A stretch of 64,000 nt of DNA, from the IMG/VR virus record IMGVR_UViG_3300045955_000385; one strand, given 5' to 3'. Made by a program: the position numbers and the translations under genes. The notes below the pieces were generated by a model. That model saw nothing but the letters and a program-made list of their open reading frames with translations. It was not told where the DNA came from and did not search any database. Each line of letters begins with the position of its first letter. Position 1 is the stretch's first letter. Below, in pieces: positions 267-52,607 of this stretch. Source of the DNA: an uncultured virus (IMG/VR IMGVR_UViG_3300045955_000385). Its lineage: Duplodnaviria; Heunggongvirae; Uroviricota; Caudoviricetes.

Positions 267-361
267 TATACTTTCTTGCTGGTGGGGCCGGAGCTGATCA
301 CTCCGCGTAAGTTGCTGCCCTATACGGCAAGCCTCACCACCTCGCGCTTATAGGGAGTGCG
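267..361 (+). ncRNA. Structured leader copy E1 with TATACT -10 box, upstream of an HNH gene
   Basis: -10 at 267-272. Outer stem 280-288/331-339. Hairpin A 289-305 (loop CTGATCA). Hairpin B 312-330 (loop CCCTATA). Hairpin C 343-361 (loop TATAGGG, overlapping the SD). Confidence 0.75.
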
Positions 362-364
362 CTC

Positions 365-967
365 ATGCCTCGCAAAAGTCTTCTGTGTACGTGTCTTCAA
401 TGTCATGGTCAATTTCTTGTCAACGATCACCGCACCAGTAAGCCGGAAGCTATCAAATATTGCTCGCGAGTATGTCATGCAGTTGTGCAGAGTGCCGAAC
501 AAGCCTCGAAATTTTGGGAGAAGGTTGCCATCTGCGTGCATGGGCTGGACTGCCCTTACTGCTGCTGGCCATGGCAAGGATTCGTGAGGTACGATGGCTA
601 CGGCGCAGTGACCAAGCACAAACGCCCCTATGGAGCATACCGCCGCGCATGGGAATACTGGCATGGTATGGACATGCCCAGTGGGCTTGATGCCTGCCAC
701 TATTGTCATAATCCTCTCTGTGTCAACCCTGCCCATATTCATCCTGGCACACGGCAAGACAATCAAACTGAATCTGTCCTGGCTCATCGCTTTCCTGTGG
801 GAGAAGCCCGCGCCAATACGAAACTGACAGAAGCGGACGTACGCTTGATCTTGCAATGGCATCGTGATGAGGGCATAGGTTGTTATGTCATCTCGAAACG
901 CATAGGAGTGAGCAACACGACGGTGTACGCGATTCTCAAAGGGCGTACCTGGAAACATATCTCCTAG
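365..967 (+). CDS. HNH endonuclease (HNH_3-like) with N-terminal Zn finger and C-terminal HTH
   Basis: CWPWQG, YGAYRRAWE, CHYCHNPLCVNPAHIHPGTRQDN, and C-terminal KLTEADVRLI...GRTWKHI. Confidence 0.85.
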   Translation: MPRKSLLCTCLQCHGQFLVNDHRTSKPEAIKYCSRVCHAVVQSAEQASKFWEKVAICVHGLDCPYCCWPWQGFVRYDGYGAVTKHKRPYGAYRRAWEYWHGMDMPSGLDACHYCHNPLCVNPAHIHPGTRQDNQTESVLAHRFPVGEARANTKLTEADVRLILQWHRDEGIGCYVISKRIGVSNTTVYAILKGRTWKHIS

Positions 968-1000
968 CGTGGGTGCCATAGCGCACTTTCCCGTTAAAGT

Positions 1001-1029
1001 TTGCACGCAAAGGTGTCGAAACGTATACT
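1001..1029 (+). promoter_or_regulatory. Sigma70-type promoter
   Basis: TTGCAC (1001-1006), 17-bp spacer, TATACT (1024-1029). Confidence 0.75.
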
Positions 1030-1035
1030 AGAGGC

Positions 1036-1126
1036 TGCCGTGCAGGGTTTGGCCACCCTCGCAAGTGCAGCAGCGCCAATCCGCTGATTGCAGCACGGCG
1101 CACCACCTCAGCCTGATTGGAGGTTG
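1036..1126 (+). ncRNA. Structured leader copy E2
   Basis: Outer stem 1036-1043/1093-1100. Hairpin A 1044-1059. Hairpin B 1066-1092 (loop CCAATC). Hairpin C 1109-1126 (loop GATTGG; SD GGAGG at 1119-1123). Confidence 0.75.
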
Positions 1127-1130
1127 TCTC

Positions 1131-1271
1131 ATGTCCTCATCGGATCGTTGGCTCTTCGCCATCCACTTCGCCGTCATGGTCATTGGTCTCGGCTTTCTTG
1201 CCACCATGGTCTATCTGACCTCCAGGCAAGTGGCCCATGTCGCGGATCTGCTGATCCGCCTGCATCAGTAA
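1131..1271 (+). CDS. Small single-pass membrane peptide
   Basis: GGAGG SD; MSSSDRWLFAIHFAVMVIGLGFLATMVYL... forms a hydrophobic helix. Confidence 0.6.
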   Translation: MSSSDRWLFAIHFAVMVIGLGFLATMVYLTSRQVAHVADLLIRLHQ

Positions 1272-1282
1272 GGCGGTGCGGC

Positions 1283-1537
1283 ATGAGTCTGCTCAACCTT
1301 GAAACCTACGATGCCCTCAAGGCGGCCGGCACCCCGGAGCCCGAAGCGCGCCAGGCCGCTATGGAAGTCGCCACGATGGGCGGTATCCTCAGCGTGCTGG
1401 CCGAACGCGTCAACGGCATCGACAGCAAGCTCACCATCATGCTGTGGATCATGGGCATTGGTTTTTCGGCCATGCTCACCGGCTTTGGCTTCATCCTCAA
1501 CATCCTCTGGCAGATCACCGCCAGATTGCCACGCTAG
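1283..1537 (+). CDS. Small coiled-coil plus C-terminal TM protein (DUF1640/CCDC90-like); paralog of 53248-53481
   Basis: YDALKAAGTPEPEARQAAMEVA...VLAERVNGIDSKL followed by a TM segment. Confidence 0.65.
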   Translation: MSLLNLETYDALKAAGTPEPEARQAAMEVATMGGILSVLAERVNGIDSKLTIMLWIMGIGFSAMLTGFGFILNILWQITARLPR

Positions 1538-1547
1538 GAGGTGCGGT

Positions 1548-1691
1548 ATGGATCGCCTCTCCTTGACCGTGCTCGTTGTCGGCTGTGTGGCCATGCTGAC
1601 CTGTACGACCCTCGTCGCCTACCAGAACGTGCGGCTGGCCCAGATTCAGCAGCAGACCATCGACCTCATCGTGCGCACGCACCAACGCTAG
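1548..1691 (+). CDS. Small single-pass membrane peptide, similar to 1131-1271
   Basis: AGGAGG SD; MDRLSLTVLVVGCVAML...IDLIVRTHQR. Confidence 0.55.
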   Translation: MDRLSLTVLVVGCVAMLTCTTLVAYQNVRLAQIQQQTIDLIVRTHQR

Positions 1692-1702
1692 GGGGTAGCG
1701 CC

Positions 1703-2011
1703 ATGGCCTGGATACTCTGGATCTTCCTTGGTGCGCTGCTGGCGATCCTGTTTCCGGCGATCCACGCGGTCTTTGCCGCCCTCGGTCCGGTGTTCGTTGT
1801 CCTCGGCCTCCTGATCGGTACCGGCGTCTTCCTGTATGCCCTGTCCTGTGGTGTCGAGGGCACCCTGCGCGAAGCCGGGGCCATGTGGCATCCGCTGACC
1901 CGCTGGCTGCCAGAAGGGCTCCAGCCGTACAGCTTCTGGCTCCTTGTGGCCGGCGGCATGGGGGCCTTTGTCGCCTTCAGCGTGACGGTGCACCTGCTCA
2001 TGGGGCGTTAA
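1703..2011 (+). CDS. Hypothetical multi-pass membrane protein
   Basis: About three hydrophobic segments. Confidence 0.55.
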
Positions 2012-5643: not shown

Positions 5644-5654
5644 GCCTGGACCTC

Positions 5655-8420: not shown

Positions 8421-8442
8421 AGGAAAGTCCTATGTTTCTAGC

Positions 8443-9003: not shown

Positions 9004-9015
9004 AGCTAGGGCTCC

Positions 9016-9382
9016 TCAAGGTACGACTGTACCGCGCAGTCCTGTCGGCGCGTTGGGCGCTTGTGGTAGCGGCACTTGAAATTGAACGGTGTTGCTAGGA
9101 CCGGATTCCTCCCCGTCTGCAGCCACCGCTTTGACGATGTAGCAGTAGTTGTGCCCAGCCAGCAACGGGGCCGGCGCCGAGCCCGTATCCGTATACGTCT
9201 GCTGGCTCCTGGGCGTCGTCGCCAGGAACGCATACACCCCGAGACAATCGTTATCGCGATACACCGCGAAGTGGTCCGCCGGGTCCAGGGGATTGTCAAA
9301 GATAATCCCAGATGAGGTTCACCCCAACCCCCAGGGCAGGCATGGCCCAGAGCAGCACAAGGGCGGTCAGTACGGCGCGCAT
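9016..9382 (-). CDS. Signal-peptide, fibronectin-III-like protein split by a +1 frameshift at 9295-9304
   Basis: Frame 1: MRAVLTALVLLWAMPALGVGVNLIWDYL*. +1 frame: DNPLDPADHFAVYR...YTDT...YCYIVKAVAADGEESGPSN. Confidence 0.6.
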
Positions 9383-10856: not shown

Positions 10857-10889
10857 GGCATTCCTAGCCATACTAGGGTACAATAAGAG

Positions 10890-10984
10890 TATACTTGCTC
10901 ACTGATGGGGTAGCGCCTGATCAGCGCTCGTCAAGTCATTGACCTTCCTCAGTGAGCCCCATCATCCAACCTGGAAGGAGGTTG
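10890..10984 (+). ncRNA. Structured leader copy E3 with TATACT -10 box
   Basis: Outer stem 10903-10911/10956-10964. Hairpin A 10912-10928 (loop CTGATCA). Hairpin B 10936-10955 (loop CCTTCC). Hairpin C 10967-10984 (loop GGAAGG). Confidence 0.8.
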
Positions 10985-10988: not shown

Positions 10989-11696
10989 ATGCCGTTCAAA
11001 GATCCCGAAAAATATCGTGCCATGGCTGGTATTTACTGTAGACGTTGGCTCGAAAAATCCCCCAAAAACCGTGAGACGTACAATGCCGCAGCGCGTGCGT
11101 CGTACCATCGACGGAAAGAACGACTCAACTCGGAACGTCGGGCAAAGCATGCAGCAAATCGTGACGAGTTGAATGCGATACGGCGAGCAAAGCGCGCTCT
11201 GAAGACACAAGATGCGCGGGAAAAGCGACTGCAAGAAGCTCCGCTGAAGAAAGCGCAAGCACAACAAGCACGTATTCTGTGGCTCAGCCAATGGCATCGT
11301 ACTTATCGGGCTGCTAATCCTCAGCAATTCCGTGCCTATGGACACGCGCGACGTGCAAGAGAAAATGGACATCCATATACATTGACACCAGAGCAAGAAT
11401 CGTTTTGCCGCGCGCACTTTCACTACACCTGTGCTGTCTGCGGCCATGAAGAAGGCTTTCAGTGGCGCATTGTGTTGGATCACTGGATACCTCTCAAATC
11501 CCCTGACTGTCCTGGCACGGTTGCCACCAACATGATTCCTCTCTGTCATGGCGTCGGCGGCTGTAATAACTCGAAAAAGGACAAAGACCCTGAAACCTGG
11601 CTGATTGCTCGCGTCGGGAAGCGCAAAGCCGCGACAATCTTGAAGCGTATCCGCGCCTATTTCGCTCTTGTGGCCCCAAAGGAGCAAGACGCATGA
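10989..11696 (+). CDS. HNH endonuclease with a basic helical N-terminus
   Basis: CAVCG...LDHWIPL...NMIPLCHGVGGCNNSK. Confidence 0.85.
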   Translation: MPFKDPEKYRAMAGIYCRRWLEKSPKNRETYNAAARASYHRRKERLNSERRAKHAANRDELNAIRRAKRALKTQDAREKRLQEAPLKKAQAQQARILWLSQWHRTYRAANPQQFRAYGHARRARENGHPYTLTPEQESFCRAHFHYTCAVCGHEEGFQWRIVLDHWIPLKSPDCPGTVATNMIPLCHGVGGCNNSKKDKDPETWLIARVGKRKAATILKRIRAYFALVAPKEQDA

Positions 11697-11965
11697 CCCC
11701 GGAGCGCAAAGCCGACGTGCTCTTCTGGTGCCAGGTCGCCCTCTATCTCACGATTATGGGCGCGATTATCACCACCATGATCCTCTTTGCCTTCTGGCTC
11801 AATACCCTGCGCCTCGACCTGGAGGAAGCCCGCGCCAGAGATCGCGCCATGCTCCAGCAACACCAGACCGTGCTCGCCGATCACGACCGCGCCCGCGAGC
11901 AACACGACCGCGACCACCAGGCGTCCCACGCGGCCTTCATGGCGCTGCTCCAGGCGTACCGTTAA
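11693..11965 (+). CDS. Small membrane-anchored coiled-coil protein coupled to the HNH gene
   Basis: ATGA overlap with the HNH stop; N-terminal TM segment followed by a heptad region. Confidence 0.55.
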   Translation: MTPERKADVLFWCQVALYLTIMGAIITTMILFAFWLNTLRLDLEEARARDRAMLQQHQTVLADHDRAREQHDRDHQASHAAFMALLQAYR

Positions 11966-12883: not shown

Positions 12884-14092
12884 TTAGACCAATGGACTCC
12901 AGACACGGCATACGGCCTCAGGTTGCACATATTTGAACCCCCAGAGCACATCACAACGGCTCAAATGGCCATCAGTACGGATGTCGGAGTCACGCCACAC
13001 GCGCAACGCCAGACGCACCTGTTCATCACTGGCCGTGGCATTCTCGCCAGACCACGGGGTAAACAGCTTGACGTTGCCCAGCGTCACGCCAATGGGGTGA
13101 TAAAACAGGTTCTGGGCATAGGCGGTGTCTGCGGTACCCAGAAACGTGATGACGCCGTTATCCACGGGGAGTGCCGTGACGGTGGCCCGTGGGTCGGACG
13201 GCAGAATCATCGGCGGGTAGACCGGCACACTGGCCGTGCCCGTGCCACTCGCGTCCACGTCGGCCTGCACGCTGAACATGCGCAACTTCCCGGTCGATTC
13301 CAGCGACTGCGGCTTGATCCCGAACACGTTGGCCACCTGAAACACGTCGCCCTTTTTGAGAACGCCCGTGGCCGAGGCGGTAAAGCCCTTCATGTTAATC
13401 GTGGACCCCGTCGAGCCGGCGGCAATGAGCGGCGTCCCGGCGCGCGAGCCCGTGGTATGCGTGGCCACGTTTTGATCAATCGACCACTTCGCGCCTAAGG
13501 TCTTGCCCATCAGGCCATCGGTGTACTGCCGGCCAATCTCGGTGGACTGCTGAAACAGGCCCTTGTTCTCGTCAACCACCTCGATGCCTTCGTCGGGATG
13601 GAGCACCACGGCGCGCTGATCGTCCCTGGGCACCCCTTCCATATCCAGGAGGGCCGAGGCCAGACCAAACGCCCGCCAGTGCTTGCCGGTTTCCACCAGC
13701 ACCGAGTTATACGCCTCCCAGTACATAGACAGGCCATCCGTGTCAATTTCGTTGGCCAGGCGGGCCGCCTGGGGTTTGGCGATGCGATTGTTCCAGTCAT
13801 CGAACTGCAATGTAAGTTCCACTGACGTGAAATCCACATCCGCATGTTTCTGTTTGTCAATGACCAGACGGACCACCTCTTCCACGTAGTCTTGACCGAC
13901 ATAAGCAGGGCCATCATGGACCGAATAGCGCGGGGTTTTCCTTATGTCGAGAAAATCGCCGATCTTGTGACCTTGCTTCCCAAAATCATCCTCCCAGCGG
14001 CGATCCGCACCAGCGGCGAAAACGAGGTTATTGGTTAAATTAGCGAGAAGCATTTGACTTACCATCTGTATGGTACGAAAAGTATTGGCCAT
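12884..14092 (-). CDS. Major capsid protein, P22 coat (gp5)-like
   Basis: MANTF...NNLVF...KIGDFLDIRK...IDKQKHADVDFTSVEL...LANEID...RCDVLWG. Confidence 0.9.
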   Translation of the reverse strand: MANTFRTIQMVSQMLLANLTNNLVFAAGADRRWEDDFGKQGHKIGDFLDIRKTPRYSVHDGPAYVGQDYVEEVVRLVIDKQKHADVDFTSVELTLQFDDWNNRIAKPQAARLANEIDTDGLSMYWEAYNSVLVETGKHWRAFGLASALLDMEGVPRDDQRAVVLHPDEGIEVVDENKGLFQQSTEIGRQYTDGLMGKTLGAKWSIDQNVATHTTGSRAGTPLIAAGSTGSTINMKGFTASATGVLKKGDVFQVANVFGIKPQSLESTGKLRMFSVQADVDASGTGTASVPVYPPMILPSDPRATVTALPVDNGVITFLGTADTAYAQNLFYHPIGVTLGNVKLFTPWSGENATASDEQVRLALRVWRDSDIRTDGHLSRCDVLWGFKYVQPEAVCRVWSPLV

Positions 14093-14199: not shown

Positions 14200-14298
14200 T
14201 ATACTCCAGATGCGACACGGCTAGGGAACAGCTGCCCGAAAACCTGTCTCAGCAGGCTGCCGCGTCGTTTTCCACTGAGACCTCTGACTGAGGAGAGG
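14200..14298 (+). ncRNA. Structured leader copy E4 with TATACT -10 box
   Basis: Outer stem 14212-14221/14259-14268. Hairpin A 14224-14237. Hairpin B 14243-14256 (loop TCTCAG). Targets are CTGAGA 14275-14280 and CTGAGG in the loop of hairpin C 14281-14298. Confidence 0.7.
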
Positions 14299-14306: not shown

Positions 14307-14981
14307 ATGTCTCGCCAAATTGATCCAGACGTGCAGAAAGCACGCTGGCGTCTTGCCAGTGCGCGCTATCGTGCCAAACATCGTCCAAAAGTTCTTGCCA
14401 AACAGCGTGACTATAATCAGCGCTACTACGCGAAAAATCGCGAGAAATTGATCGCAGCCAGCGCCGCGTACTATGCGGCAAATCGCGAGCAGATTCTTGC
14501 TGACAACAAAACTCCAGAAGCGCGGAGGTATCAAGCGCTCTGGAAAAGGGCCTTCCGTGCGAGCAATCCAGTCGCGTACAATGCCTATACGCAGAAGCGT
14601 CGTGATGCCAATCGCGAGACCATTCGCGAGCGTGACCGTGCCTACTATGCCATAGACTATGCCGCGCATCCTGAACGCCACCGGGCGAAACACCATAGGC
14701 GACGTGCGCGGATAGCCGGATCGCAACGTAATGACTTGACGCCCGAACAAGCTGCACTCATTCTTGCTCTCGCCGATGGCGTCTGCGCCTATTGTCCGTA
14801 CTACAATCCTACGTGTCAGGCCTGCAAACGGCATAGTCACGAACTCACCTATGATCACATCACGCCCGTCAATGACCAGGGCGACAGCACACTCTGGAAC
14901 TTTGTCGCCTGCTGTAAGTCTTGCAACTCCAAGAAAGGTATTGGACCGCCTCCAGGACCAGTCCAACCGTTGTTGCTCTAG
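14307..14981 (+). CDS. HNH endonuclease with a repetitive basic N-terminus
   Basis: CAYC...YDHITPV...NFVACCKSCNSKKG. Confidence 0.85.
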   Translation: MSRQIDPDVQKARWRLASARYRAKHRPKVLAKQRDYNQRYYAKNREKLIAASAAYYAANREQILADNKTPEARRYQALWKRAFRASNPVAYNAYTQKRRDANRETIRERDRAYYAIDYAAHPERHRAKHHRRRARIAGSQRNDLTPEQAALILALADGVCAYCPYYNPTCQACKRHSHELTYDHITPVNDQGDSTLWNFVACCKSCNSKKGIGPPPGPVQPLLL

Positions 14982-15975: not shown

Positions 15976-18069
15976 TTATTGCTCCTCTACGGTGCCGTTC
16001 GTGGGTTGCTGCATGTCATGGGCGAGTTTTGCTGCTTCGACAGAATATTTGAGTTCCAGTTCACGGCGCTTGAGGGCATTATCCTCCACAGCCACCTCAT
16101 GTTCCCACTTCGCCTTATAGGTCTCAATCGCCTCGGTCTGGCGCTTATCCTCCAGGCGCGTCTTGAGCCGGGCATTTTCCTGCTCGGTCAAGGCCAGCTG
16201 TTGCGTCGCCACCTGTGTCTGCTGCTGGAGCTTCTGCATCTCCTGCGTCAGCGCCTCCAGCTGCTGCTGGGCCTGTCTGGCGGCGTTCTGCGCCTGCACC
16301 AGCTGCGTTTCCGGACTCCCGCCTTGCGTCGCCTGGAGCGCTTCCGGTGGGACTAACGTGCGCAAGCGTTGCGAGAGTTCCTCGGCGCCCGGGATATCGA
16401 GCGAGCCCGTATAGATGTCGAGGACATACTTCGCCACGTCAGGCACCGCGCCCAGGAGAATGCCAAGCCGCTCATTCATCATCTCGCGGCTGGTGTCATA
16501 ACTGGGGCCACTGGACACCACGCATTCGTACACGCCAGCCCCCAGCGCATGGTCCATCCCCTGCCCATCCGGCCTGGGCTGGTTCACCTGGGCCATCGAA
16601 ACCGTCCCGTCCTTGCCGACCTGGCGCAGCTGCGTCGGGCCCGGGTAGAGGGTTGGCAGGATAGCGAGGATCTGCCTGCCACACGCCTCGATCGACCACG
16701 CCAGGTTGGCCGTGAAGCCGGCGGTCGTCTGCTCGCCCTCGCGCTTCCTGGCGTCAATCGCCGCGCCACTCTGTTCATTGGAGGGCGCGCCAACGCTGGC
16801 TTCGTACTGGCCTACGGTGGCCTGAATGTCCTGGGCGGCGAGCATCCTGGCCTGGGAGATGGCCTGGACGGCGGGCTCGGCCACCTCACGGCGGGGTGGG
16901 GGGAGGAGCTGGCCGCCAGCCACCACGGCCTTGACGGGCAGGTAGGGCAGGTGCGCGTCATTGGCCTGCCTCCACAGGTCCTCGTAGCCGGCGATGGTCT
17001 CGGCAAACAGGATGAAGGGCGCCTTGGGCGTCAGGGCAATGGCACTCATTTCGGCGCTGGCGTAGGCATCGTAAGCGAACTGGCTGGAGGCCGAGGCCTG
17101 CACAATGCCGGTGCGGCGGGCCCGGCCGTCGAGGTCGAGGCGCCGGCCTTCGACACGGATCAGCGGGATGTGACTTCCTGGCCAGCGGGTCTTCTCCAAC
17201 ACCGCGTAGCCGCACATGGTCACGCCATAGACGGTGCAGATGCGCGTCTGGCGCGTCGGCCACTCTGGCGGGAGATCGCCGAGTCCCTCGGTGGGCAGCA
17301 CCGTGCCATCGGGCATCTGGACGATCTCTTCGTCCTGCCAGACCTTGTAGTAGTAGAGAGCCACCTGGACATCCGTCGGCGTGACCCACTTCTGGTCAGG
17401 ATAGGACGCCCAGTGACGCACCTCGGCCGGGCTCTTGCGGTATTTGGCGCAGAAGGCGCGGTGCGACATGGTGTCGATGATGAAGGCCCAGTCGAGGTCC
17501 AGGGCTGCTGGGTGGGTGGAATAGGGGTCACAGAACACACTGAAGCGGTCGTACACCGGCACAATTTTGAGGCACTGCTGGAAGGACGTCGGGGATTCGT
17601 AGTCCAGCGCGAGGCGAAAGAAGCCCTCGCCAGTGCTGATGGCCTGGGATAAGGCCGAGGTGTACGAAATTTCTGCTTGTGAATCGGCCTCTATGTCCCT
17701 GACTTTCCCTTCCAAGATCGTCGCAAGCTTCTGCGTCGCCCCCCCCGACTTGGGACGAATACGGATGGAAAAGGGCGCACGCCTGTACGAGTTGATGAGT
17801 TGGGAGATATATTGATGCGTCCGATCAATAGTGAGCGTCGGCTGCTCCTGGCCTTGTTTGGCGCGTTGCTCCCGTAAATAGGAAGGCCAATGCTCACCGC
17901 TTTGAAACACTAAGGCATCGCGTTGTTGAGCCCTTTCAGCCTGCTCGGCTTGTTCTGATTCGGTGAACCGGGCACGGGCTTCGCTGAGCACGTCGTCATC
18001 GGTGCGCGGGTCCAGCGCAGTCTTGTCCTCGCGGGTCAGCGGGCGCAGGGTCTGGACGTGTTCAGCCAC
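15976..18069 (-). CDS. Portal protein, P22-like, with a C-terminal coiled-coil barrel
   Basis: FQSGEHWP...PTLTID, GEGFFR, WPGSHIPLIRVEG, SGAAIDARK, SGPSYDTSRE, and a long Gln-rich C-terminal helix. Confidence 0.9.
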   Translation of the reverse strand: MAEHVQTLRPLTREDKTALDPRTDDDVLSEARARFTESEQAEQAERAQQRDALVFQSGEHWPSYLREQRAKQGQEQPTLTIDRTHQYISQLINSYRRAPFSIRIRPKSGGATQKLATILEGKVRDIEADSQAEISYTSALSQAISTGEGFFRLALDYESPTSFQQCLKIVPVYDRFSVFCDPYSTHPAALDLDWAFIIDTMSHRAFCAKYRKSPAEVRHWASYPDQKWVTPTDVQVALYYYKVWQDEEIVQMPDGTVLPTEGLGDLPPEWPTRQTRICTVYGVTMCGYAVLEKTRWPGSHIPLIRVEGRRLDLDGRARRTGIVQASASSQFAYDAYASAEMSAIALTPKAPFILFAETIAGYEDLWRQANDAHLPYLPVKAVVAGGQLLPPPRREVAEPAVQAISQARMLAAQDIQATVGQYEASVGAPSNEQSGAAIDARKREGEQTTAGFTANLAWSIEACGRQILAILPTLYPGPTQLRQVGKDGTVSMAQVNQPRPDGQGMDHALGAGVYECVVSSGPSYDTSREMMNERLGILLGAVPDVAKYVLDIYTGSLDIPGAEELSQRLRTLVPPEALQATQGGSPETQLVQAQNAARQAQQQLEALTQEMQKLQQQTQVATQQLALTEQENARLKTRLEDKRQTEAIETYKAKWEHEVAVEDNALKRRELELKYSVEAAKLAHDMQQPTNGTVEEQ

Positions 18070-18511: not shown

Positions 18512-19096
18512 CTAGCCTCCTAGGGCCTGCTTCTGTGCGCTGAGACGGCGACGGTAATTTTTCTTGTGCCTGCTACGACACGCACGACAAATACGACGTC
18601 CCTTTGGGTCCAACGCCAGGTTGTCGCCATCAAATTCATGCCCATATTTGCAATGCGTCTTGCGAGCATTGGCAGCGGTTAATCCTTCGCCTCGCAAGAT
18701 ATTTGTATGCCTGGTAACGGGCTCAAGATGTGCAGGATTACAACAGGCATGATGGCGGCAGAGATGATCGAGCTGGAGTCCTTGAGGAATCGGTCCTACA
18801 AAGCGCTCATAAGCATACCGATGCACATACAGGAACGTGTGACTCCCTAAAGACAACTGTCCATAGCCCTTCTTATCAAGGGTCCCACCCCACAGCCAAC
18901 ACGTCTCCGTGCGTGTTACATAGGCTTCAAAGCGTATGGCAAGACTACAGGCGTCAGAACATCCCCGCTGGGATCTCCCATTGGCTCGGTAGACGTGGTT
19001 GCACCACACACACACGCGCAAAGGGGCACGCGGGTGGCTTCGTTGCGTTTTTCTCCAGACAGCGGGCGGAAAAAGCCGTAGATTCTTCTCAGGCAT
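18512..19096 (-). CDS. HNH endonuclease (HNH_3-like) between TerL and portal
   Basis: CWLWGG...HRYAYE...LDHLCRHHACCNPAHLEPVT...KTHCKYGHEF. Has its own extended -10 TGGTATAAT at 19164-19172. Confidence 0.85.
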   Translation of the reverse strand: MPEKNLRLFPPAVWRKTQRSHPRAPLRVCVWCNHVYRANGRSQRGCSDACSLAIRFEAYVTRTETCWLWGGTLDKKGYGQLSLGSHTFLYVHRYAYERFVGPIPQGLQLDHLCRHHACCNPAHLEPVTRHTNILRGEGLTAANARKTHCKYGHEFDGDNLALDPKGRRICRACRSRHKKNYRRRLSAQKQALGG

Positions 19097-19196
19097 GCTG
19101 CGACTCCAATCCAGTTGCAGTGTGAGTAGGGACGTGTCAGGCACCACCCTGGCACGTCTCGTTATTATACCACAAGAGTCTGCGTAATACATTGAT

Positions 19197-20534
19197 TTAC
19201 CTGAACCAAAAGCCTTGCCTTACCCCTCGTGGGATAGCACCTGGATCTCTTGTAAATGTCGGAAGTTGCACTGTCTCCTGATCCTGGTACATAATACAAA
19301 ATGTTCTAAGAGAGTCTGCGGCGTGGCTTGACCAGTCATGCATAGGATGGTCTAAGAAGGTTTTGCGTGTCTCGCTCCATTCCCTACGGTAAGCCGCCAG
19401 CGCCAGCAACCCTTCATGGCACTTCTCTTTGTCGAACATGAAACGGGGGAATAACGTTCTCACGGCCTGCACACCGTCAGCAATCGGGCTCTGCGTGGCA
19501 ATGACCGAAGGCTTCAGCCCTAAGCTTTCCGCCAGGGCCAAGCGGGAACGTCCATCACTACTAAAGTCGCGCGCCATGACGTCATGAGGCCAGTAAAAAC
19601 GACCATAGACGTAGGGCTTCTCTCGGATGGCTCGCACATAATATTCCAGTCCACGGTCCGTTGCTTCGAAGTAATCTATAACGTGGATCATTCTGCCCAC
19701 AGGCTGAAAAAACCAAATAGCCGTGCTATCGGCAACCCCGATGTCGAACGAAACGTGCACAGGGATATTGACTTCCCATGGCACTCTGGTGATACGTCCT
19801 TCCTCCCTGGCCGTCTCCAGGTACGAGGCGTAGTAGGCGCCAATCAGGGCACTCTCGAAACTGCACATCCACTCCTGGGCATATTGCTCTGGTGCCATGA
19901 CGCGCCGGGCCGCGTCGAGTTCCTCCTGCGGGATGACGCCGGTATCCTCCACCGTATAGAGCGCCGTATGCCAATCAGGCTCGTGCTGCGCCTGCTGGTA
20001 GAGGTCGTAAAAATGATTATGCCCCATGGGCGTCCCAATGAAGATGGCCCAGCCGGCCCGGTCCGCCAGTGCCGGGCGCACCACTTCATGCCACACGCGC
20101 GGGCGCATCTGGGCGTACTCATCGAACACGACGCCATCGAGGTAGATACCGCGCAGGCTATCGGGGTTATCCGCACCGTAGAGGCGAATCTGGCCACCAT
20201 TGGGGAAATCCACCCGGAGCTCGGCTTGATTGATGGTGATGTCCTCAAAGACACTGGCATAGCGCGACAGCATATCCCACGCAATGGCTTTGGCCTGGCG
20301 ATAGAGGGGAGCGATATAGGCGTAACGCGGCTGGCGCTGCGCGTTGCGTGTGAGGTCAGAGAGGGTAATCAGTAAGGTCAGGGCACTTTTCCCGAAGCGA
20401 CGATGACAGACCCAGCAATTAAAACGCTGACGCGCATCGACCAGACGCTTTTGATAGGGGCGGAGGCGTTCAGCACGGATAAGGGGTGCACGCCTAGATT
20501 TCGAGGATCTGGGTGGTGCGATGGCCATGTTCAT
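19197..20534 (-). CDS. terL: Terminase large subunit (P22/Terminase_6-like)
   Basis: CHRRFGKS Walker A, GADNPDSLRG, VVFDEYA Walker B, FIGTPMG, FDIGVADST, HDWSSHAADSLR. Confidence 0.93.
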   Translation of the reverse strand: MNMAIAPPRSSKSRRAPLIRAERLRPYQKRLVDARQRFNCWVCHRRFGKSALTLLITLSDLTRNAQRQPRYAYIAPLYRQAKAIAWDMLSRYASVFEDITINQAELRVDFPNGGQIRLYGADNPDSLRGIYLDGVVFDEYAQMRPRVWHEVVRPALADRAGWAIFIGTPMGHNHFYDLYQQAQHEPDWHTALYTVEDTGVIPQEELDAARRVMAPEQYAQEWMCSFESALIGAYYASYLETAREEGRITRVPWEVNIPVHVSFDIGVADSTAIWFFQPVGRMIHVIDYFEATDRGLEYYVRAIREKPYVYGRFYWPHDVMARDFSSDGRSRLALAESLGLKPSVIATQSPIADGVQAVRTLFPRFMFDKEKCHEGLLALAAYRREWSETRKTFLDHPMHDWSSHAADSLRTFCIMYQDQETVQLPTFTRDPGAIPRGVRQGFWFR

Positions 20535-21645: not shown

Positions 21646-21862
21646 GGGGCACCTCGTCACGACCGAGGAGATAATCCACACTCACGCCGAGCACATCAGC
21701 AAGACGGACAAGCCGCGCCACCGTGGGCACACTCACGCCACGTTCGTACTTACTCACATCGGTTTTAAACAGCCGCGCCTGGTGCGCGACATCATCCTGA
21801 CTCAATCCACGTCGTCGCCGCACGAGCAGCAAGCGCTCCTGTAACAGCGGAACACGTTCCAT
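21638..21862 (-). CDS. XRE-family HTH regulator
   Basis: RRRRGLSQDDVA...VSKYERGVSVPT...LADVLGVSVDYLLGR. Confidence 0.9.
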   Translation of the reverse strand: MERVPLLQERLLLVRRRRGLSQDDVAHQARLFKTDVSKYERGVSVPTVARLVRLADVLGVSVDYLLGRDEVPHV

Positions 21863-21937
21863 ACTCACCTCCTACTATGATGATAGCAAGTGGTGAAAAA
21901 TATTTCAAATTTCTTCTACTTTTTTTCTAAGATTGGC

Positions 21938-21966
21938 TTGCACAGGTAAGCGAGTTAGGCTACAAT
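21938..21966 (+). promoter_or_regulatory. Sigma70-type promoter divergent from the XRE gene
   Basis: TTGCAC, 17-bp spacer, TACAAT, in an AT-rich intergenic region. Confidence 0.7.
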
Positions 21967-22026
21967 ATTTCTAGAGACAGCATGGCGGTGGCCAACCCCG
22001 CAAGAGAGCATAAGGAGAAAGACAGC

Positions 22027-22620
22027 ATGTATCCAGAGGCACTCATTACCCGTTTTTGGTCCCATGTGCGACAGTGTACACATGGGATGACGTGTGACAC
22101 CTGTTGTTGGGAATGGACAGCAAGTCTGAATTCCTGGGGGTATGGAAATTTTAAAATGACGCCCCGCTACCGCGAAGGACGGGCCATCACACAGCACGCA
22201 CACCGCGTTGCGTATCGGATTCACTATGGGGCATTCGACGACGCAGCATTCGTCTGCCATCGTTGCGATAATCCTGCCTGCGTTAATCCACAACATTTAT
22301 GGCTCGGCACACCAAAAGACAATGTCAATGATGCGGTGAAGAAAGGACGACATCGATCCCAAGTCCTCAAGCTCCCGGAAGAGGAGAAGCGGGTCATTAT
22401 GTACGCGAAATCACGCGGGATAAACAATAAGCATCTTGCCATGATTTTCGCAGTCACGATCCAAACGATACGTCTCATTGGGCATCAGCAAGTGTTCCAC
22501 AGTCCTAAGGAAGGATTTCAGGACTATGCCGCAGAGTATGTGAAGATGGCAATTGAAAAAAGGTTAGCGGCTTTACGAGAGCAGTTACTCGAAGTCTGCC
22601 AGCAGTTAAAAGAACAGTAA
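22027..22620 (+). CDS. HNH endonuclease (HNH_3-like)
   Basis: CWEWTAS...AHRVAY...VCHRCDNPACVNPQHLWLGTPKDNVNDAVKKGR. Confidence 0.88.
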   Translation: MYPEALITRFWSHVRQCTHGMTCDTCCWEWTASLNSWGYGNFKMTPRYREGRAITQHAHRVAYRIHYGAFDDAAFVCHRCDNPACVNPQHLWLGTPKDNVNDAVKKGRHRSQVLKLPEEEKRVIMYAKSRGINNKHLAMIFAVTIQTIRLIGHQQVFHSPKEGFQDYAAEYVKMAIEKRLAALREQLLEVCQQLKEQ

Positions 22621-27048: not shown

Positions 27049-27690
27049 ATGCCTCCCCTCGCCCCAAAACCATACAGCGTCATTCATCACGAAGCCCCCC
27101 TGCCACCTGATCTCAGCAAGGGCCAGACGCTCATCGCGCTCTATGCCCTGCAACAATGGGAATGCCTCAAGCAACCCCAACTCAGCCCCTACAAACCCGG
27201 CTACTTCTATAACGCCATCCAGGGCATTTTACGCGGGCTGGAGACCCCATCGCGAGGCACCGCGTTGCGCCATCTCGCCACCAGTGCCTGCATCGCCTGT
27301 GGCGATCCCGTCAATCCGCTGCGTTCCAGATTCGATCATATCATTCCAAGCGCCAGCGGTGGTCCGGAAGACCTCGGCAATGCCCTCGTCTTGTGTCGTC
27401 CGCATAACAGCTCGAAAGGGACGAGGGACCTGCTCGACTGGTGGCTGTGGAAATCCTACGATGCCCTCCTGCTGCCTCGAGAGGTCCTGTGCCTCTATGC
27501 CCGTATTCACTGGCAGCATTACGGCCCAGAAGTTCTTGGCGAACCCACACCGCCCTTTCTTGCCGCGTTCCTGTGTGCCCGCGCTGCAGCCCTCCCCGGC
27601 GATGACTACCGCATTGCCCTGATCGGTGCAGCCTTTGCCGCCAGTGGCTTTGTACGCTGGCTCAAGGAGCCCCCACGCCATGGCACGTGA
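27049..27690 (+). CDS. HNH endonuclease
   Basis: CIACG...FDHIIP...NALVLCRPHNSSKG. Confidence 0.8.
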   Translation: MPPLAPKPYSVIHHEAPLPPDLSKGQTLIALYALQQWECLKQPQLSPYKPGYFYNAIQGILRGLETPSRGTALRHLATSACIACGDPVNPLRSRFDHIIPSASGGPEDLGNALVLCRPHNSSKGTRDLLDWWLWKSYDALLLPREVLCLYARIHWQHYGPEVLGEPTPPFLAAFLCARAAALPGDDYRIALIGAAFAASGFVRWLKEPPRHGT

Positions 27691-31744: not shown

Positions 31745-32181
31745 CCATGCAGAGCACTGGCCTCCTGGTCTTCCAGGCGTTATGCGACTGCGGCAACACC
31801 CTGGCGGCGTGCCGCGACGACTACCCGCCGGGCAGCGATACGTGGTGCGCGCTCACGGGCTTTGTGCAGAGCATCGATCAACTTATTGACGCGCTGGTTG
31901 AGGGACCAGCGCTGGAGGAGGAGTGGTAAGTTGGAGTCCTCGACTGGGAGGCGCCTGTACAACGAGCTGGGGTTAGTCGCCACGCGCTACCGCGACTGGT
32001 TTGCGGAGGGCACCCCCGCCGAATGGGTCCGGGCTCTCGATCATATCCAGGCCGTCCTGACGGCCTGCAAGCGCGAGGCCGCCGACGCCGACCGGGCCCA
32101 CCGTGCCCGGCTCGCGGCCGCGCAGTAACTGCCCCTGCTGCCGGAGGCCGCCGGGCACGAACCAGTGCTGGAGGATAGGCC

Positions 32182-32478
32182 ATGCCGCGCGGCCGCAAAA
32201 CGTCCCTGACTCTCACCCTCACGCCGGAAGAGCGCCAGGTACTTACCACCTGGCAGCGGCAACACCTGATCCCGGTAGGGCTGGCCCGACGCGGCCGGGT
32301 CATGCTGCTCGTGGAAGGCGGCATGCCGCTCACGCACGTGGCCGCCCGGGTGGGCTTCAGCCGCCGCTGTGTGGCAAAGTGGGTGCGGCGCTTCCTGGCG
32401 CATGGGCTGGACGGGCTGAGAGAAAGGCCACGCGGGCGGCGGGGCGACGCAAGGATGGGGCGGGAGGAGGGGGCATGA
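32182..32478 (+). CDS. Stand-alone IS630-like N-terminal HTH protein (no DDE domain)
   Basis: LTLTPEERQVL...ARRGRVMLL...VAARVG..RRCVAKWVRRFLAHGLDGLRERPRG. Confidence 0.7.
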   Translation: MPRGRKTSLTLTLTPEERQVLTTWQRQHLIPVGLARRGRVMLLVEGGMPLTHVAARVGFSRRCVAKWVRRFLAHGLDGLRERPRGRRGDARMGREEGA

Positions 32479-45866: not shown

Positions 45867-45869
45867 GTC

Positions 45870-47787: not shown

Positions 47788-47793
47788 GGGTCC

Positions 47794-48558: not shown

Positions 48559-49574
48559 TAGGCGTGCTCCACCCCCGCCTCCAGGGCATTCACCGTCGCC
48601 GACGTCCAAGGAACCAGCCCATCAGGATTCGTTTCCCAGATGTCGCTATACCACGCATACGTATTGGGCAACGTGATGAGCGTCGATCCCACCTGGGTGG
48701 TCAGGCCACTTTTGAGCAGCGTGCGTAGCTGCTGCAATCCCGCATCATCTTTCCGCATCCTGACGCCATGCTGTACCGCATAAATAATCGGATTGGGCAT
48801 CGACGGCAACGCGGTAAAATGATGCGATTCGCGTGCGCCTGCCACCAGAGTGCTCACATAATCCACGTCATCAGTCGAGGGCGTGTCATCCACCAGACTA
48901 AAGTGAGCGGCGGCGATCGACGGCGTCCAGTCGCTATAGGTCCCGTCGGCATTCGGGATGAGCATATCGACGCGACAATCGCCCAGCAGCGTGTTGTTCG
49001 TTGGGCCGGTCGCATCACAGATATAGCAATCATCTATCCACCCAAGGGCCATAATGCCGGCCGTCAAATAAATTTCATTGGCAGCATTATTGCTTGTCGT
49101 GCGCGTATTCACATTGCTGAGAGCTATCCGTGTGGTGCCGTCAATCGCCAGAGTGGCGCTGCCAGTCGTGGGATGAATGGTGGCCATCAGTTCGATATAG
49201 TAGTAGACGGTTGCCACCATGCGAAAGGCCCCCGCCGTGCCCAACTCGACCCCATTGCGCGTCACAATGGGGCACCCATCATTGCGGATGCGGACTTCCA
49301 CCTGATTGGTGCCATTATCACGCAAGGCCAGGACGGGCTGTGGCGCGGCAGAGCTGTTGGGCAAATAACTGAAACGTAAGGCAAAACCCACGATCCATGT
49401 CGGTTGCGCCTCCAGCACTTTGCTGACATAGGCATTAATGGCACCCAAACCCAGCGCCTGTGTGCCACGACGTCCGTCGCCGGCCCGGATATCGCAATAG
49501 TTCGTATCCGTCCATTTCTCGTACAGATTGCCCGTGGCGTAATGATCAAAGGAGTCGATGAATCTAAGGCTCAT
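48558..49574 (-). CDS. Virion tail-associated beta-sandwich protein, paralog B
   Basis: MSLRFIDSFDH...YYYIEL...IDDCYICD...LLGDCRVDMLIPNA. Confidence 0.65.
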   Translation of the reverse strand: MSLRFIDSFDHYATGNLYEKWTDTNYCDIRAGDGRRGTQALGLGAINAYVSKVLEAQPTWIVGFALRFSYLPNSSAAPQPVLALRDNGTNQVEVRIRNDGCPIVTRNGVELGTAGAFRMVATVYYYIELMATIHPTTGSATLAIDGTTRIALSNVNTRTTSNNAANEIYLTAGIMALGWIDDCYICDATGPTNNTLLGDCRVDMLIPNADGTYSDWTPSIAAAHFSLVDDTPSTDDVDYVSTLVAGARESHHFTALPSMPNPIIYAVQHGVRMRKDDAGLQQLRTLLKSGLTTQVGSTLITLPNTYAWYSDIWETNPDGLVPWTSATVNALEAGVEHA

Positions 49575-52099
49575 TACATATTCCTCTGCGCCTGCTGCAT
49601 GGCCTGCATCATGGCGCGTGACACCGCCCCGCGCGAGGCCACGAAACTCTGCGCGTTCTGCACGCCACTCACATGCACGTTGACCACGGTCGTCCCTCCC
49701 ATGGCCTGGCCATTGGGCACCACCGTGCCACTTTGTCTCGGCACGAACAGTTCCGGCCCTCTTTCTCCAACCCAGTACGGCTGGCCGCCAACAACCGGGC
49801 CGCCGTGCTGCATACCCGGCGCATCGCCCCCCACAAAGGCCAGGGCGCTCACGGCCGTCCCTGCCCCACCGCCTCCCCCAGCGCCGGCCGCGGCACTGCC
49901 GAGCTTGAGGACGGCTTTGAGTGCCACATCGAGCCAGCCGCCCTCCTGGGTGGCCATCTTGCCAATCGTCTGCAAGGAGAGGCGGTAGAAGTCCTCGGCA
50001 ATACTACTCACCATGTCCTTAAAGGACGCCTTGCCGTGAAACACAAAGTCGGTGAGGGCGTCGCCCATCTTGTCAAAGGTGCGGTCGGTGAACTCGCGCA
50101 GGGTCTCCAGGTCCTCCTGCATGCTCTCGAAGGCCAGGGTGCGTTCCATCTGCGCCCGCCCACGCGCCAACGTTTCTGGATCGCTCGTCACTTTCTTGAG
50201 ATCCTCGAAGCTCTTGGCCAGTTGCTCTCGGCGCGTCAGTTGGATATCGGGCTCAAAGTCCTGCATGATCTCCTTGATCGCTTCAAACTCAGCCGCACTG
50301 GCTTTGGCCTGGGAGCGCAACGCTGGCAGTTGCGCTTCCACTCGCTGCACGTCTGCAATAGCCGCAGCCAGCTCCCTGGCTTTTTCTGCGTATTGCGAAG
50401 TAGCAAGTGAAGCCGCGAGCATGCTGGCGCGATCAGCATCCCGTTCGGCGCGCACCTCGGTATAGCGTGAGGCCAGTTGCCGGAGGGCCTCCATCGAGGT
50501 AGCATGCACCCGCGCCACTTCCTCGGCTTGCTGCCGATCAAGGCGCGCCTCTTCTTCCTGGGCTTGCTGCCTCTTGCGCTCGGCTTCTTCGCGTGCCTGG
50601 TCGGCTTTGCGCTGGGCCGCGGCCAGATCCTGGATGGCTTGTTTCTTCGCCTCGATTGCCGTGACATCTGCGCTGTACTGGCGGCGCAATTCCGCCTGCT
50701 GCGCCACGAGTTCTGCGGGCACGGGGCCAGCGCGTTCGGGACGGCCGGTGATCGTGGCCGTGATGGCTTCGAGACTCTTGGCCGTGAGATCCTTGCGGCG
50801 TTCCAGAAACTGAATTTGCTGCTGGAGGGTGCCGTTTTCCTTGCCATAGATTTCAGGGGTGAGCGCAGAGGATTTATTGAGGGCATCCCTGGCTTTTTTC
50901 TGATCCTCAAGCGTGGTCGTCAGGGCCTTATTGTTGGAGGCTTGATCCCGGAGAATCGCCTGGTTGGCAATCTGCTGTTCGTTAATTTCCTTCTGGCGCG
51001 CCGCGGCCCGCTCCTGTTCCACGGCCCGTTTGCGAATGTCTTCAATATCGCGTTGTAGAATGCTTTCGGGATGGCGCCCCATGGCCGTTTCGGTCATGGC
51101 CGCCTTTTCTGCCTCCGTCGTCCACTTTGACAGAGGCCCTAACATTTGCTCTACCTGGGCACGTGCATTCTCGGCGGCAGTCCGCGAGGCGGTAAACAGC
51201 CCGGCAATCTTGCCAGCAGCAGCATCGAGGAATTGCAAAAGACCAGATTGTGCCATGCGGTCTTTGAGGAGCAGGATCTCATTGCCTAGCTGGGCAATCC
51301 CTTTCCCGGCCCGCTCGGCAGCGAGTGGGGCTTCGACCTTGAGCTGTTGCGTAAAGCGCTGCGTGAACTCGACCGCATCGAGCCCTTTGGCGATCATCTC
51401 TTCGAGGGCTTTGGTATTGGTGCCATAGGCTCTGGCAGCGATCTGCATAGCCCCAGGCAACGCTTCACCCAATTGCCCGCGTAACTCCTCCATGCTGACC
51501 TTGCCCTTACTCACAATCTGTTGAAAGGCAAGGAGAGCACGTCCTGTTTGATCGGTGGAGAGACCAAAGGTCGTTGAGGCTTGTGTCAATGCCGTGAAGA
51601 GATCGCGTGTTGCCTGACCTTCAAGTGCCGTGCCACGTGTCGCCGCAGTGAGACTGCGGTACTGATCGGCCAGCTTGCTCAGCTCCAAACCAAGCGTATT
51701 GGCGGTCTTCACGACAAAGGCAAATTGCTGACCACCCGCTTGCGCGCCGCCAGCAATGGCGTTAAACGAGGTGCGCAGGTTCTGCATCTCGATCCCAGTG
51801 CGCACGACGTCCTGCATGGCACTGGTAAGCGATTGCACCGTGAGGACACCCGCCGCCAGGCCCAGGAGCGAACTGGACAGACCACCGACGCTCGTCCTGG
51901 TATTGCCGATGGCGGTAGCGGTAGCATTGGCACGAGTAGTGACACCGGAGAGGGTCGTGCCGAGCTGGGAGAAGGTCGAGGTGAGACCCTTCACTTCCTG
52001 CTCGGTGAGGCGCAAGGTGGCCGTAGTCTTGCGCATACCCTGCTCGAAGGCATCGGTTTTAGCAGAAACAGTTACTACTAAACTTCCTGCGATAGCGAT
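49574..52099 (-). CDS. Tape measure protein (probable ATC start at 52099; first ATG at 52036)
   Basis: AFQQIVSKGKVSMEELRGQLGEALPGA tape-measure motif; C-terminal GGPV..GQPYWVGERGPELFVPRQSGTVVPN. Confidence 0.9.
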   Translation of the reverse strand: MAIAGSLVVTVSAKTDAFEQGMRKTTATLRLTEQEVKGLTSTFSQLGTTLSGVTTRANATATAIGNTRTSVGGLSSSLLGLAAGVLTVQSLTSAMQDVVRTGIEMQNLRTSFNAIAGGAQAGGQQFAFVVKTANTLGLELSKLADQYRSLTAATRGTALEGQATRDLFTALTQASTTFGLSTDQTGRALLAFQQIVSKGKVSMEELRGQLGEALPGAMQIAARAYGTNTKALEEMIAKGLDAVEFTQRFTQQLKVEAPLAAERAGKGIAQLGNEILLLKDRMAQSGLLQFLDAAAGKIAGLFTASRTAAENARAQVEQMLGPLSKWTTEAEKAAMTETAMGRHPESILQRDIEDIRKRAVEQERAAARQKEINEQQIANQAILRDQASNNKALTTTLEDQKKARDALNKSSALTPEIYGKENGTLQQQIQFLERRKDLTAKSLEAITATITGRPERAGPVPAELVAQQAELRRQYSADVTAIEAKKQAIQDLAAAQRKADQAREEAERKRQQAQEEEARLDRQQAEEVARVHATSMEALRQLASRYTEVRAERDADRASMLAASLATSQYAEKARELAAAIADVQRVEAQLPALRSQAKASAAEFEAIKEIMQDFEPDIQLTRREQLAKSFEDLKKVTSDPETLARGRAQMERTLAFESMQEDLETLREFTDRTFDKMGDALTDFVFHGKASFKDMVSSIAEDFYRLSLQTIGKMATQEGGWLDVALKAVLKLGSAAAGAGGGGGAGTAVSALAFVGGDAPGMQHGGPVVGGQPYWVGERGPELFVPRQSGTVVPNGQAMGGTTVVNVHVSGVQNAQSFVASRGAVSRAMMQAMQQAQRNM

Positions 52100-52158
52100 G
52101 GCTTTACCCTTTCGCTAAAGTTCTTTCTGCTGTCGGTCGATACGAGGTATAGTTATGT

Positions 52159-52247
52159 TATGATACTGACGTGGTAAGGTGTGGGTCGCTCCCACAGACA
52201 TGCCTTAACCATGTCAGCCTTACCACATACACCTGTTAAGGAGGTGT
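52159..52247 (+). ncRNA. Structured leader copy E5 with TATGAT -10 box
   Basis: Outer stem 52171-52180/52217-52226. Hairpin A 52181-52195. Hairpin B 52197-52215 (loop CCTTAAC). Hairpin C 52229-52247 (loop GTTAAGG; SD AGGAGG). Confidence 0.8.
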
Positions 52248-52250
52248 CCT

Positions 52251-52607
52251 ATGTCCCGCATCATGTACGGTTTCGTTGGTGTTGTCCTCCTTGTGGCCAT
52301 GTTTCTCATCAAAGACATGGTCAATCCTACTTACCCTGCGCATGCCAAAAACGTTGCCCACACGTTTTGTCGAGATTTCGGCAACATTGCTGCCACTGTC
52401 GTCCGAGCAAGAGATCGTGGAACCATCCCATCATTGCTTCTCCAAGAGATACGAAATAGTGCCGTGACCTATCCCATACCGATGCCAGGCGTTGATGCCA
52501 TGAACACAGAGATCGTTCTCTATGTATATGGCAATCCGCATGTGACAGAAACATCAGCCAGGCAGCGTATAGAAACACTGTGTCATCAAGTCATCCACGA
52601 AATGTAA
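52251..52607 (+). CDS. Hypothetical exported or membrane-anchored moron protein
   Basis: N-terminal hydrophobic helix, lower GC, antisense to the tail operon. Confidence 0.6.
   Translation: MSRIMYGFVGVVLLVAMFLIKDMVNPTYPAHAKNVAHTFCRDFGNIAATVVRARDRGTIPSLLLQEIRNSAVTYPIPMPGVDAMNTEIVLYVYGNPHVTETSARQRIETLCHQVIHEM

Follow-up and report, generated by a model that had tools for sequence, protein, structure and literature searches.

How does a phage keep in check accessory genes that lie antisense to its own structural genes? The question is raised by a stretch of 64 000 nucleotides (nt) from an uncultured tailed virus (Caudoviricetes; IMG/VR record IMGVR_UViG_3300045955_000385), here called the window, in which five short cassettes, all antisense to structural genes, each begin with a structured leader, E1 to E5, that runs into the ribosome binding site (RBS) of the first gene. 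A preliminary description of the same DNA had proposed that these leaders share one fold, that a loop in each is complementary to a second, copy-specific loop over the Shine–Dalgarno sequence (SD), and that together they form a portable, orthogonal lock on translation, perhaps a minimal relative of the C4 antisense RNAs. We report here that the leader is a real, selected RNA structure, that one of the five copies matches the Rfam family int-alpA while the other four match nothing in Rfam, and that the pairing of the two loops probably, if by no means certainly, serves to hold the SD closed in cis.

Results

Five leaders with one fold and different loop pairs

The five elements and their sequences, all on the plus strand, were verified at the positions given below. 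Each begins 6 or 7 nt after a −10 box (7, 6, 7, 6 and 6 nt for E1 to E5), which is TATACT four times and TATGAT once. In all five, an outer stem of 8–10 base pairs (bp) encloses hairpins A and B to form a three-way junction, and a separate hairpin, C, contains the SD. Minimum free energy (MFE) folding yields this architecture directly for E1, E3, E4 and E5, and for E2 when the fold is started at 1035. The copy-specific loop pairs are as had been described: the reverse complement of loop B occurs at 349, 1115, 10973, 14275 and 52235, and complementary runs between loops B and C measure 6–7 nt for cognate pairs and at most 4 nt for non-cognate pairs among the five.

The TATACT box of E1 (267–272), which is −10-like and has a second box, TATAAT, 11 nt further upstream, stands 7 nt from the outer stem of a junction (280–339) with a 9 bp outer stem, hairpin A (loop CTGATCA), a linker and loop B (318–324). 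Hairpin C of E1 (344–361) holds the SD and the complement of loop B (349–355), and the start codon at 365 opens a gene for an HNH endonuclease (HNH_3; 365–967). E2 has its box at 1024–1029, with a −35-like hexamer, TTTGCA, 18 nt upstream; its junction (1036–1100) includes a long, bulged hairpin B with loop B at 1076–1081, and the 6-nt loop (1115–1120) of hairpin C (1109–1126, stem 6 bp) is fully complementary to it. From the start codon at 1131, three open reading frames (ORFs) of 46, 84 and 156 amino acids (aa) follow (1131–2011), which encode hydrophobic segments and match no family. In E3 the box (10890–10895; a second one, TACAAT, 11 nt upstream) precedes a junction (10903–10964) with loop A CTGATCA and loop B at 10943–10948; the 6-nt loop (10973–10978) of its hairpin C (10967–10984, stem 6 bp) is again fully complementary to loop B, and the cargo from the start codon at 10989 (10989–11965) is an HNH/endonuclease VII-like protein of 235 aa and a hydrophobic protein of 90 aa.

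The E4 leader (14212–14280) lies behind a box at 14200–14205 with TGG directly 5′ of it. It comprises a junction (14212–14267, loop B at 14247–14252) and a first site complementary to loop B at 14275–14280; hairpin C (14281–14298, stem 5 bp) then carries, in its loop, the SD and a second complementary site with one G–U pair (14288–14293), and an HNH endonuclease gene (14307–14981) starts at 14307. E5 has its TATGAT box at 52159–52164, with TG in front and a second box, TATAGT, 11 nt upstream; its junction (52171–52226) has loop A TCGCT and loop B at 52203–52209, and the 7-nt loop (52235–52241) of hairpin C (52229–52247, stem 6 bp) is fully complementary to loop B. Its cargo, from the start codon at 52251 (52251–52817), consists of a 118-aa protein with a hydrophobic N-terminus (phrog_2315) and a 65-aa superinfection-immunity protein (PF14373). 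The cargo thus agrees with the preliminary description, with HNH nucleases behind E1, E3 and E4 and small hydrophobic proteins behind E2 and E5.

Ten further leaders from soil viruses

A covariance model built from E3 alone and run over the whole 64 kb, both strands, with filters off, gave as its top three non-self matches E1 (41.3 bits, E = 1e-7), E5 (19.5 bits, E = 0.012) and E2 (18.0 bits, E = 0.027); E4 was not recovered. Because a model that contains E3 only ranks these three best in the window, the likeness of E1, E2, E3 and E5 is not due to chance.

Related leaders were sought around protein relatives and in viral contigs. A descriptor scan of loci around protein relatives revealed a leader, L002, before a 35%-identical HNH gene, and model R1, run on seventeen such loci, gave three matches at E ≤ 1, one of them real (L042). 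Viral contigs were also searched with patterns made of the conserved hairpin C stem and the stretch from SD to ATG, the loop being left as N. With the E5-type pattern, 7 of 12 matches had a junction upstream, namely two copies of E5 and loci L050, L051, L053, L054 and L042, the last two being one and the same leader. With the E2/E3-type pattern a junction was present in 6 of 12, among them two copies of E3, one of E2, L065 and L066. In every junction-bearing match, loop B fitted the hairpin C loop that the pattern had left unspecified; the remaining matches, five and six, respectively, had no junction. A search of ten viral records with model R2, built from 11 sequences, added L191, L198 and L200, and L201, a second int-alpA, was found in a related phage that also carries L198. 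The soil viral contigs thus yielded ten more leaders, for a distinct total of 15 (five from the window, nine of the new family and L201), and in all 15 the architecture is the MFE structure or close to it.

R2 found no sixth copy in the window; its next-best match, 32103–32184 (17.3 bits, E = 0.39), had no loop match on reading and was judged to be chance, as were scanner matches with weak stems. A descriptor scan also returned a weak three-way fold at 18620–18676 on the plus strand, within a minus-strand HNH gene, with stems of just 3–4 bp and a second loop that has an 8-nt complement 15 nt downstream. Twenty loci that encode relatives of the E4 nuclease were free of int-alpA matches at E ≤ 0.1.

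The E5-type hairpin C pattern gave at least 120 matches in genome contigs, and of the 80 loci fetched none gave an R2 match at E ≤ 0.01; what they contain is a simple hairpin over the SD, in front of recombinase-like and other genes. The metagenome scan gave at least 117 matches, of which one of 80 fetched loci matched R2 (26.4 bits) and proved to be a plain long hairpin. Among the matches listed, metagenome-assembled genomes (MAGs) of Bryobacterales contained many copies of a gene whose product resembles, at its start, a tyrosine recombinase or integrase, and in front of every copy was a conserved leader that ends in a simple SD-pairing hairpin (L068, L071, L072, L084, L092, L098, L103–L105, L108, L111, L114 and others); a Rhodopila MAG had four copies of another simple-SD-hairpin unit.

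Stems and loop pairs covary

The preliminary description had named a lack of covariation between loops B and C among homologues as a finding that would tell against it. Covariation is present, both in the stems and in the loop pair. In the alignment of 11 sequences, 21 of 25 stem pairs have changed on both sides, and 95.4% of cells are paired, compared with 68.1% after shuffling and 36–45% when partners are slid, in an alignment that was fitted to the model and so favours structure. The MAFFT alignments of the leaders (A1, A2) were out of structural register and were not used, and the model-made alignments A5 and A8 placed several loops in insert columns; for this reason the loop pair was counted by script, with loops taken from the MFE parse and not picked for complementarity.

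By their loop pairs, the 15 leaders can be sorted into 11 classes. Cognate loops B and C share Watson–Crick runs of 5–8 nt, whereas the runs of 198 non-cognate pairs of different class average 3.49 nt and never exceed 5; when the 11 class representatives were permuted 100000 times, the observed sum was never reached. MFE folding makes loops B and C equally long (6 or 7 nt) and exact reverse complements in 10 of 15 leaders. Every loop B has, at its start or further in, a CC facing the first GG of the SD, and its other bases vary. The mean duplex energy is −7.2 kcal/mol for cognate and −3.4 kcal/mol for non-cognate pairs, and the best duplex partner is the cognate or a same-class target in 10 of 15 rows; the rows in which it is not belong to the E5 class, E1 and E4, the MFE loops of E1 and E4 being trimmed.

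One int-alpA and a separate family

The preliminary description could not tell whether the element is already catalogued; for one copy it is. Against the 4227 families of Rfam, the single gathering-level match in the window is that of E4 (14214–14280, plus strand) to int-alpA, RF02996 (36.9 bits, E = 5.5e-4); the threshold is 35.8 bits, which L201 also passes (41.2 bits). E1 and E2 have no Rfam family at E ≤ 10 in a scan of 951 bases, nor do E3 and E5 (identical copies in L009 and L038) and seven relatives in a scan of 13.6 kb. In the reverse comparison, R2 scores E4 at 5.0 bits and L201 at 8.9 bits.

The two groups share a design. int-alpA, like all five leaders, has an outer stem that encloses two hairpins, the second of which has a loop complementary to a purine-rich site close by on the 3′ side. 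Both int-alpA copies, E4 and L201, lie 6 nt past a TATACT box and before HNH genes; L201 further has a first complementary site past the stem, its SD in a hairpin loop, and an HNH-like gene next. The groups differ in how the target is displayed. The int-alpA consensus has its complementary site in the tail after the outer stem, where it is found in E4 (14275–14280) and in L201, whereas the spacers of E1–E3 and E5 lack this first, ‘decoy’ site and their sole complement is in hairpin C. In the new family the single target occupies the loop of a dedicated, size-matched hairpin, before which the Rfam model stops; the linker is CGNNAAG-like rather than GAAAA, and there is no U run. The setting of int or alpA genes that gives int-alpA its name is missing here, the leaders standing before HNH and small membrane protein genes within structural modules. 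As judged from sequence, then, the window holds one int-alpA (E4) and four members of a separate, uncatalogued sequence family that has its architecture and logic in common with int-alpA.

Rfam types int-alpA as ‘Gene; sRNA’, that is, as a small RNA, and the motif reportedly comes from a survey by Weinberg and colleagues in 2017. Our literature search found no paper that tests its function; in the part of one source that was available (PMC12370729), it is merely listed among predicted small RNAs.

Loop A, CCA and the spacing of hairpins B and C

Loop A has no complement in its own leader, and no downstream complement longer than 5 nt. Palindromes of 6 nt occur in 3 of the 9 distinct loop A sequences, a level reached by 16 of 20000 random sets, and palindromes of at least 4 nt in 6 of 9 (32 of 20000). 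They are TGATCA, CAGCTG and GGCC in the window (295–301, 10918–10924, 14229–14234 and 1052–1055) and TTGCAA in L051; sequences of this kind are typical, too, of restriction or methylation sites, GATC being part of TGATCA. TCGCT, which is the loop A found most often (5 of 15 leaders), lacks self-complementarity.

A CCA had been noted at or just after the 3′ end of every outer stem. All five copies do have it, although in E1 and E5 it lies within the stem and is paired there. Of the 15 leaders, 13 have a CCA near the end of the stem, at positions −3 to +6, and in nine of these it touches the stem or is part of it; L065 and L191 have none. The CCA is largely just the partner of a conserved 5′ UGG. 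Processing by RNase P, suggested by analogy with C4, is not supported: the CCA often lies within the stem and two leaders lack it, and since the fold starts at about the transcript start that the promoters predict, the 5′ end would not have to be processed.

Hairpin B domains tend to be longer where the spacer to hairpin C is longer (Spearman rho 0.57, p = 0.035, n = 14), a correlation that rests on two or three lineages, as the leaders are not independent. The domain measures 24–28 nt where the spacer is 8–10 nt and is short where the spacer is 0–3 nt. No consistent trans target of loop B was found elsewhere in the window, other start codons included.

Promoter-like boxes

A TANNNT box ends 6–9 nt ahead of the outer stem in 12 of 15 leaders. 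The heptamer GTATACT occurs five times in the window, with 1.68 expected, and 5 of 100 shuffles reached five. Tandem −10-like hexamers whose starts are 10–11 nt apart, with no clear −35 box, are seen in 6 of 15 leaders (window 256–272, 10879–10895 and 52148–52164; also L053, L054 and L066).

The leader goes with the cassette

That the element is portable, as had been proposed, is upheld by two kinds of observation: a single type of leader is found in front of genes that are unrelated, and one family of cargo occurs with two leader classes. The E5-class leader precedes the 118-aa protein, a distant relative of it (L051) and an unrelated protein (L053), and one family of small membrane proteins is found under the different leaders of L054 and L191, whose products share, by eye, the C-terminal motif RDIARFLGTDR. 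The second ORF of L054 resembles, also by eye, the 90-aa protein behind E3 (11693–11965). In rough ORF calls on GC-rich DNA, the flanking long ORFs are on the other strand in most of 11 related loci. The arrangement is best read as one in which the putative lock travels with the cassette and not with the gene.

The window and its modules

The window has a G+C content of 62% and contains two phage structural modules, both on the minus strand. The first is P22-like (coat 12884–14092, portal 15976–18069, large terminase 19197–20534) and is followed by plus-strand early genes, among them a primase–polymerase (27626–30229). The second resembles siphoviruses or gene transfer agents and runs from 38933 to the window end (tape measure 49574–52036, portal 60438–61784, terminase 62445–63989). 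The E5 leader lies next to the tape measure gene. Megablast found no GenBank phage close to the window, and the closest identities of its two portal proteins (≤ 32% and ≤ 46%) likewise indicate no near GenBank phage. Sequence identical to parts of the window is present in several IMG/VR contigs and in soil metagenome runs; 24 soil sequencing runs contain the stretch, eight of which are RNA libraries. Three IMG/VR contigs, identical in sequence to the window, map to approximately 1–23242, 5888–31790 and 31999–64922. Because none of the contigs fetched bridges 31791–31998, the 208 bases between the P22-like and siphovirus-like halves, the window may join two phages, either as tandem prophages or through the assembly.

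Contigs that agree with the window from 1027 onwards come from RNA libraries of two separate studies (X16, X20); upstream of that point they have 51–59 nt in common that differ from the window, so that the break falls inside the E2 −10 box; there seems to be a variant phage with the E2 cassette in another context, perhaps one without the E1 nuclease cassette.

Two HNH genes of the window, at 18512–19192 (minus strand) and 21982–22620 (plus strand), have the orientation of their neighbours and no leader. A divergent control region with a helix-turn-helix repressor-like gene on the minus strand lies at 21650–21985, and a promoter, TTGCAC-17-TACAAT, lies immediately 5′ of the leaderless HNH gene at 21982. 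A weak DicF-like match at 53417–53449 (24.6 bits, threshold 48), past the E5 cassette region, is a G+C-rich hairpin and probably no more than that.

Discussion

A probable lock on translation in cis

The pairing of loop B with loop C covers the SD, and a lock on translation is therefore its natural reading, as the preliminary description had it; that pairing is well founded in the covariation, and a lowering of translation would be its expected consequence. We consider it somewhat probable that the leaders act in this way and in cis. Each cassette would be transcribed from its own promoter of sigma-70 type, and transcription would start no more than a few nucleotides from the foot of the outer stem. 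The first 55–65 nt would fold during transcription into the three-way junction, which would display loop B. As the RBS region emerged it would form hairpin C, whose 5′ arm (usually ACCT-like) would pair with the 3′ half of the SD and whose loop of 6–7 nt would consist of the 5′ half of the SD and 3–5 copy-specific bases. Loops B and C, equal in size and complementary, could then form an intramolecular kissing helix, and this helix together with the stem of hairpin C would leave the whole SD paired and keep initiation low. Such a lock would serve HNH nucleases and small membrane or immunity proteins, products presumably harmful in excess. The link between the length of the hairpin B domain and that of the spacer is what an intramolecular contact would require.

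Several observations weigh against this account. Simple geometry leaves it uncertain whether a coaxial stack of hairpin B, kissing helix and hairpin C can close on an outer stem of 9–10 bp at spacers of 0–3 nt. All five loop pairs of the window differ, which fits an avoidance of cross-talk that would be needed only if leaders acted in trans, and close relatives keep their loop pair while their stems drift, again as expected if cross-talk in trans mattered. Orthogonality is itself imperfect: among the five leaders of the window no loop B is complementary to any loop C other than its own, as had been claimed, but the E5-class loop pairs with the L002 target (one G–U; −7.8 kcal/mol) almost as well as with its own (−7.7 kcal/mol), and for loop B of E3 any SD is a partner, at roughly −5.5 kcal/mol. 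Promoter scans found a −35/−10 pair at the right position for E2 and E5 only, and the four soil metatranscriptome runs are present as contigs that cover both strands and contain no transcript starts or ends.

These loop pairs bear on the alternative that the junction, cut from the mRNA or outliving it, is a stable small RNA that kisses hairpin C of new transcripts in trans, as a C4-like self-targeting antisense RNA, with negative feedback on each cassette and cross-repression of incoming relatives of the same class. The difference between the five pairs, the 11 classes among 15 leaders and the retention of the pair despite stem drift in E5, L051 and L053 and in E2, L065 and L191 all fit such a scheme; fully complementary loops of 6–7 nt are the format of kissing antisense RNAs that act in trans, such as ColE1 RNA I and RNA II, the small-RNA type that Rfam assigns to int-alpA points the same way, and TTTT follows the E4 outer stem. 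A terminator-like site after the junction was, however, not found in E1–E3 or E5, and the other int-alpA, L201, has no U run; no processed species was seen in contigs of RNA runs, which show no transcript ends; the CCA is not a free 3′ tail, and the link between B-domain and spacer length speaks for contact in cis. We therefore regard action in trans as unlikely. A lock that a signal opens, through leader–leader pairing at loop A when transcripts are abundant during phage replication, through a protein bound to hairpin A, or through the convergent late transcript, draws on the palindromes of loop A (6 nt in three, at least 4 nt in six of the nine distinct sequences) and on the antisense position of the window's cassettes and, by rough calls, of most of the 11 related loci. 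Yet the commonest loop A is not self-complementary and no loop A has a complement in its own leader, and we think a switch of this kind very unlikely. Highly improbable, finally, is a role confined to protection or insulation of the mRNA, in which a paired 5′ end slows 5′-end-dependent decay and shields the start region against upstream or antisense context, with little effect on translation: in 12 of 15 leaders the outer stem does begin where transcription is predicted to start, and the cassettes do lie in foreign, oppositely transcribed surroundings, but a stem alone needs neither hairpin B nor a loop pair next to the SD that covaries through 11 classes.

The cis and trans modes could also be combined with dosage sensing. 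Each cassette would then have a private loop address, its junction would act in addition as a stable small RNA in trans to repress its own class, and leader–leader pairing at loop A would let the lock read gene dosage and open during phage replication. We hold such an addressable set of regulators to be distinctly unlikely; if it existed, repression of transcripts from incoming related phages would amount to immunity at the level of the cassette.

The kissing-loop lock in cis, if correct, would mean that an orphan Rfam family, now classed as a small RNA, functions in translational control, and that a second, uncatalogued RNA family in soil phages uses the int-alpA design with its target displayed on a hairpin. 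It suggests how selfish nuclease and accessory genes might move between phages with their own dosage control, and the 11 natural loop pairs would be a ready set of largely non-cross-reacting candidate translational locks.

Comparison with known systems

As autonomous units between late genes, each with a predicted promoter of its own, often antisense and with immunity or membrane cargo, the cassettes resemble the morons of temperate phages. They differ from them in that the terminator that helps to define a moron was not found by a scan 3′ of the cargo in the five cassettes, all of which have −10 boxes. Morons are not, to our knowledge, known to share a leader RNA, and in those parts of the sources that were available, the matches listed by a search on morons and prophage leaders describe no such leader.

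Hairpins that sequester the RBS are known from homing-endonuclease genes, among them I-TevI and mobE of phage Aeh1, and there, as would be the case here, pairing of the SD limits the translation of a selfish nuclease. The simple SD hairpins of our genome-contig scan, including those of Bryobacterales, even have the same SD-stem sequence as the leaders. They are single local hairpins, whereas in the leaders a remote junction loop would provide half of the pairing, and this loop covaries with its target. Our literature search found no paper on kissing-loop control of the RBS in phage homing endonucleases.

Kissing loops are best known from the antisense control of plasmids, as in RNA I and RNA II of ColE1 and CopA and CopT of R1. 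The leaders share with these the fully complementary hairpin loops of 6–7 nt (here in 10 of 15 leaders, in MFE structures) and the distinction of classes by a few loop bases. The plasmid RNAs, however, come from opposite strands and meet in trans, while both loops of a leader are on the plus strand of one and the same RNA.

Kinship with C4, which had been put forward, is not supported: there is no match to Rfam C4 (RF01695), c4-2 or c4-a1b1 at E ≤ 10, and one loop has a target, not two. C4 has two target-bearing loops, with targets upstream and downstream, whereas here loop B alone has a target and there are no upstream target copies; nor is the CCA a free tail here, or the cargo an antirepressor. 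C4 of P1 and P7 is a structured RNA that shares a transcript with its target, which lies 3′ of it, and owes its specificity to a few loop bases. In the leaders, too, target and RBS of the following gene overlap, and the target would be part of the same transcript. By analogy, then, the principle appears to be alike, that of a structured RNA placed upstream of its own RBS target.

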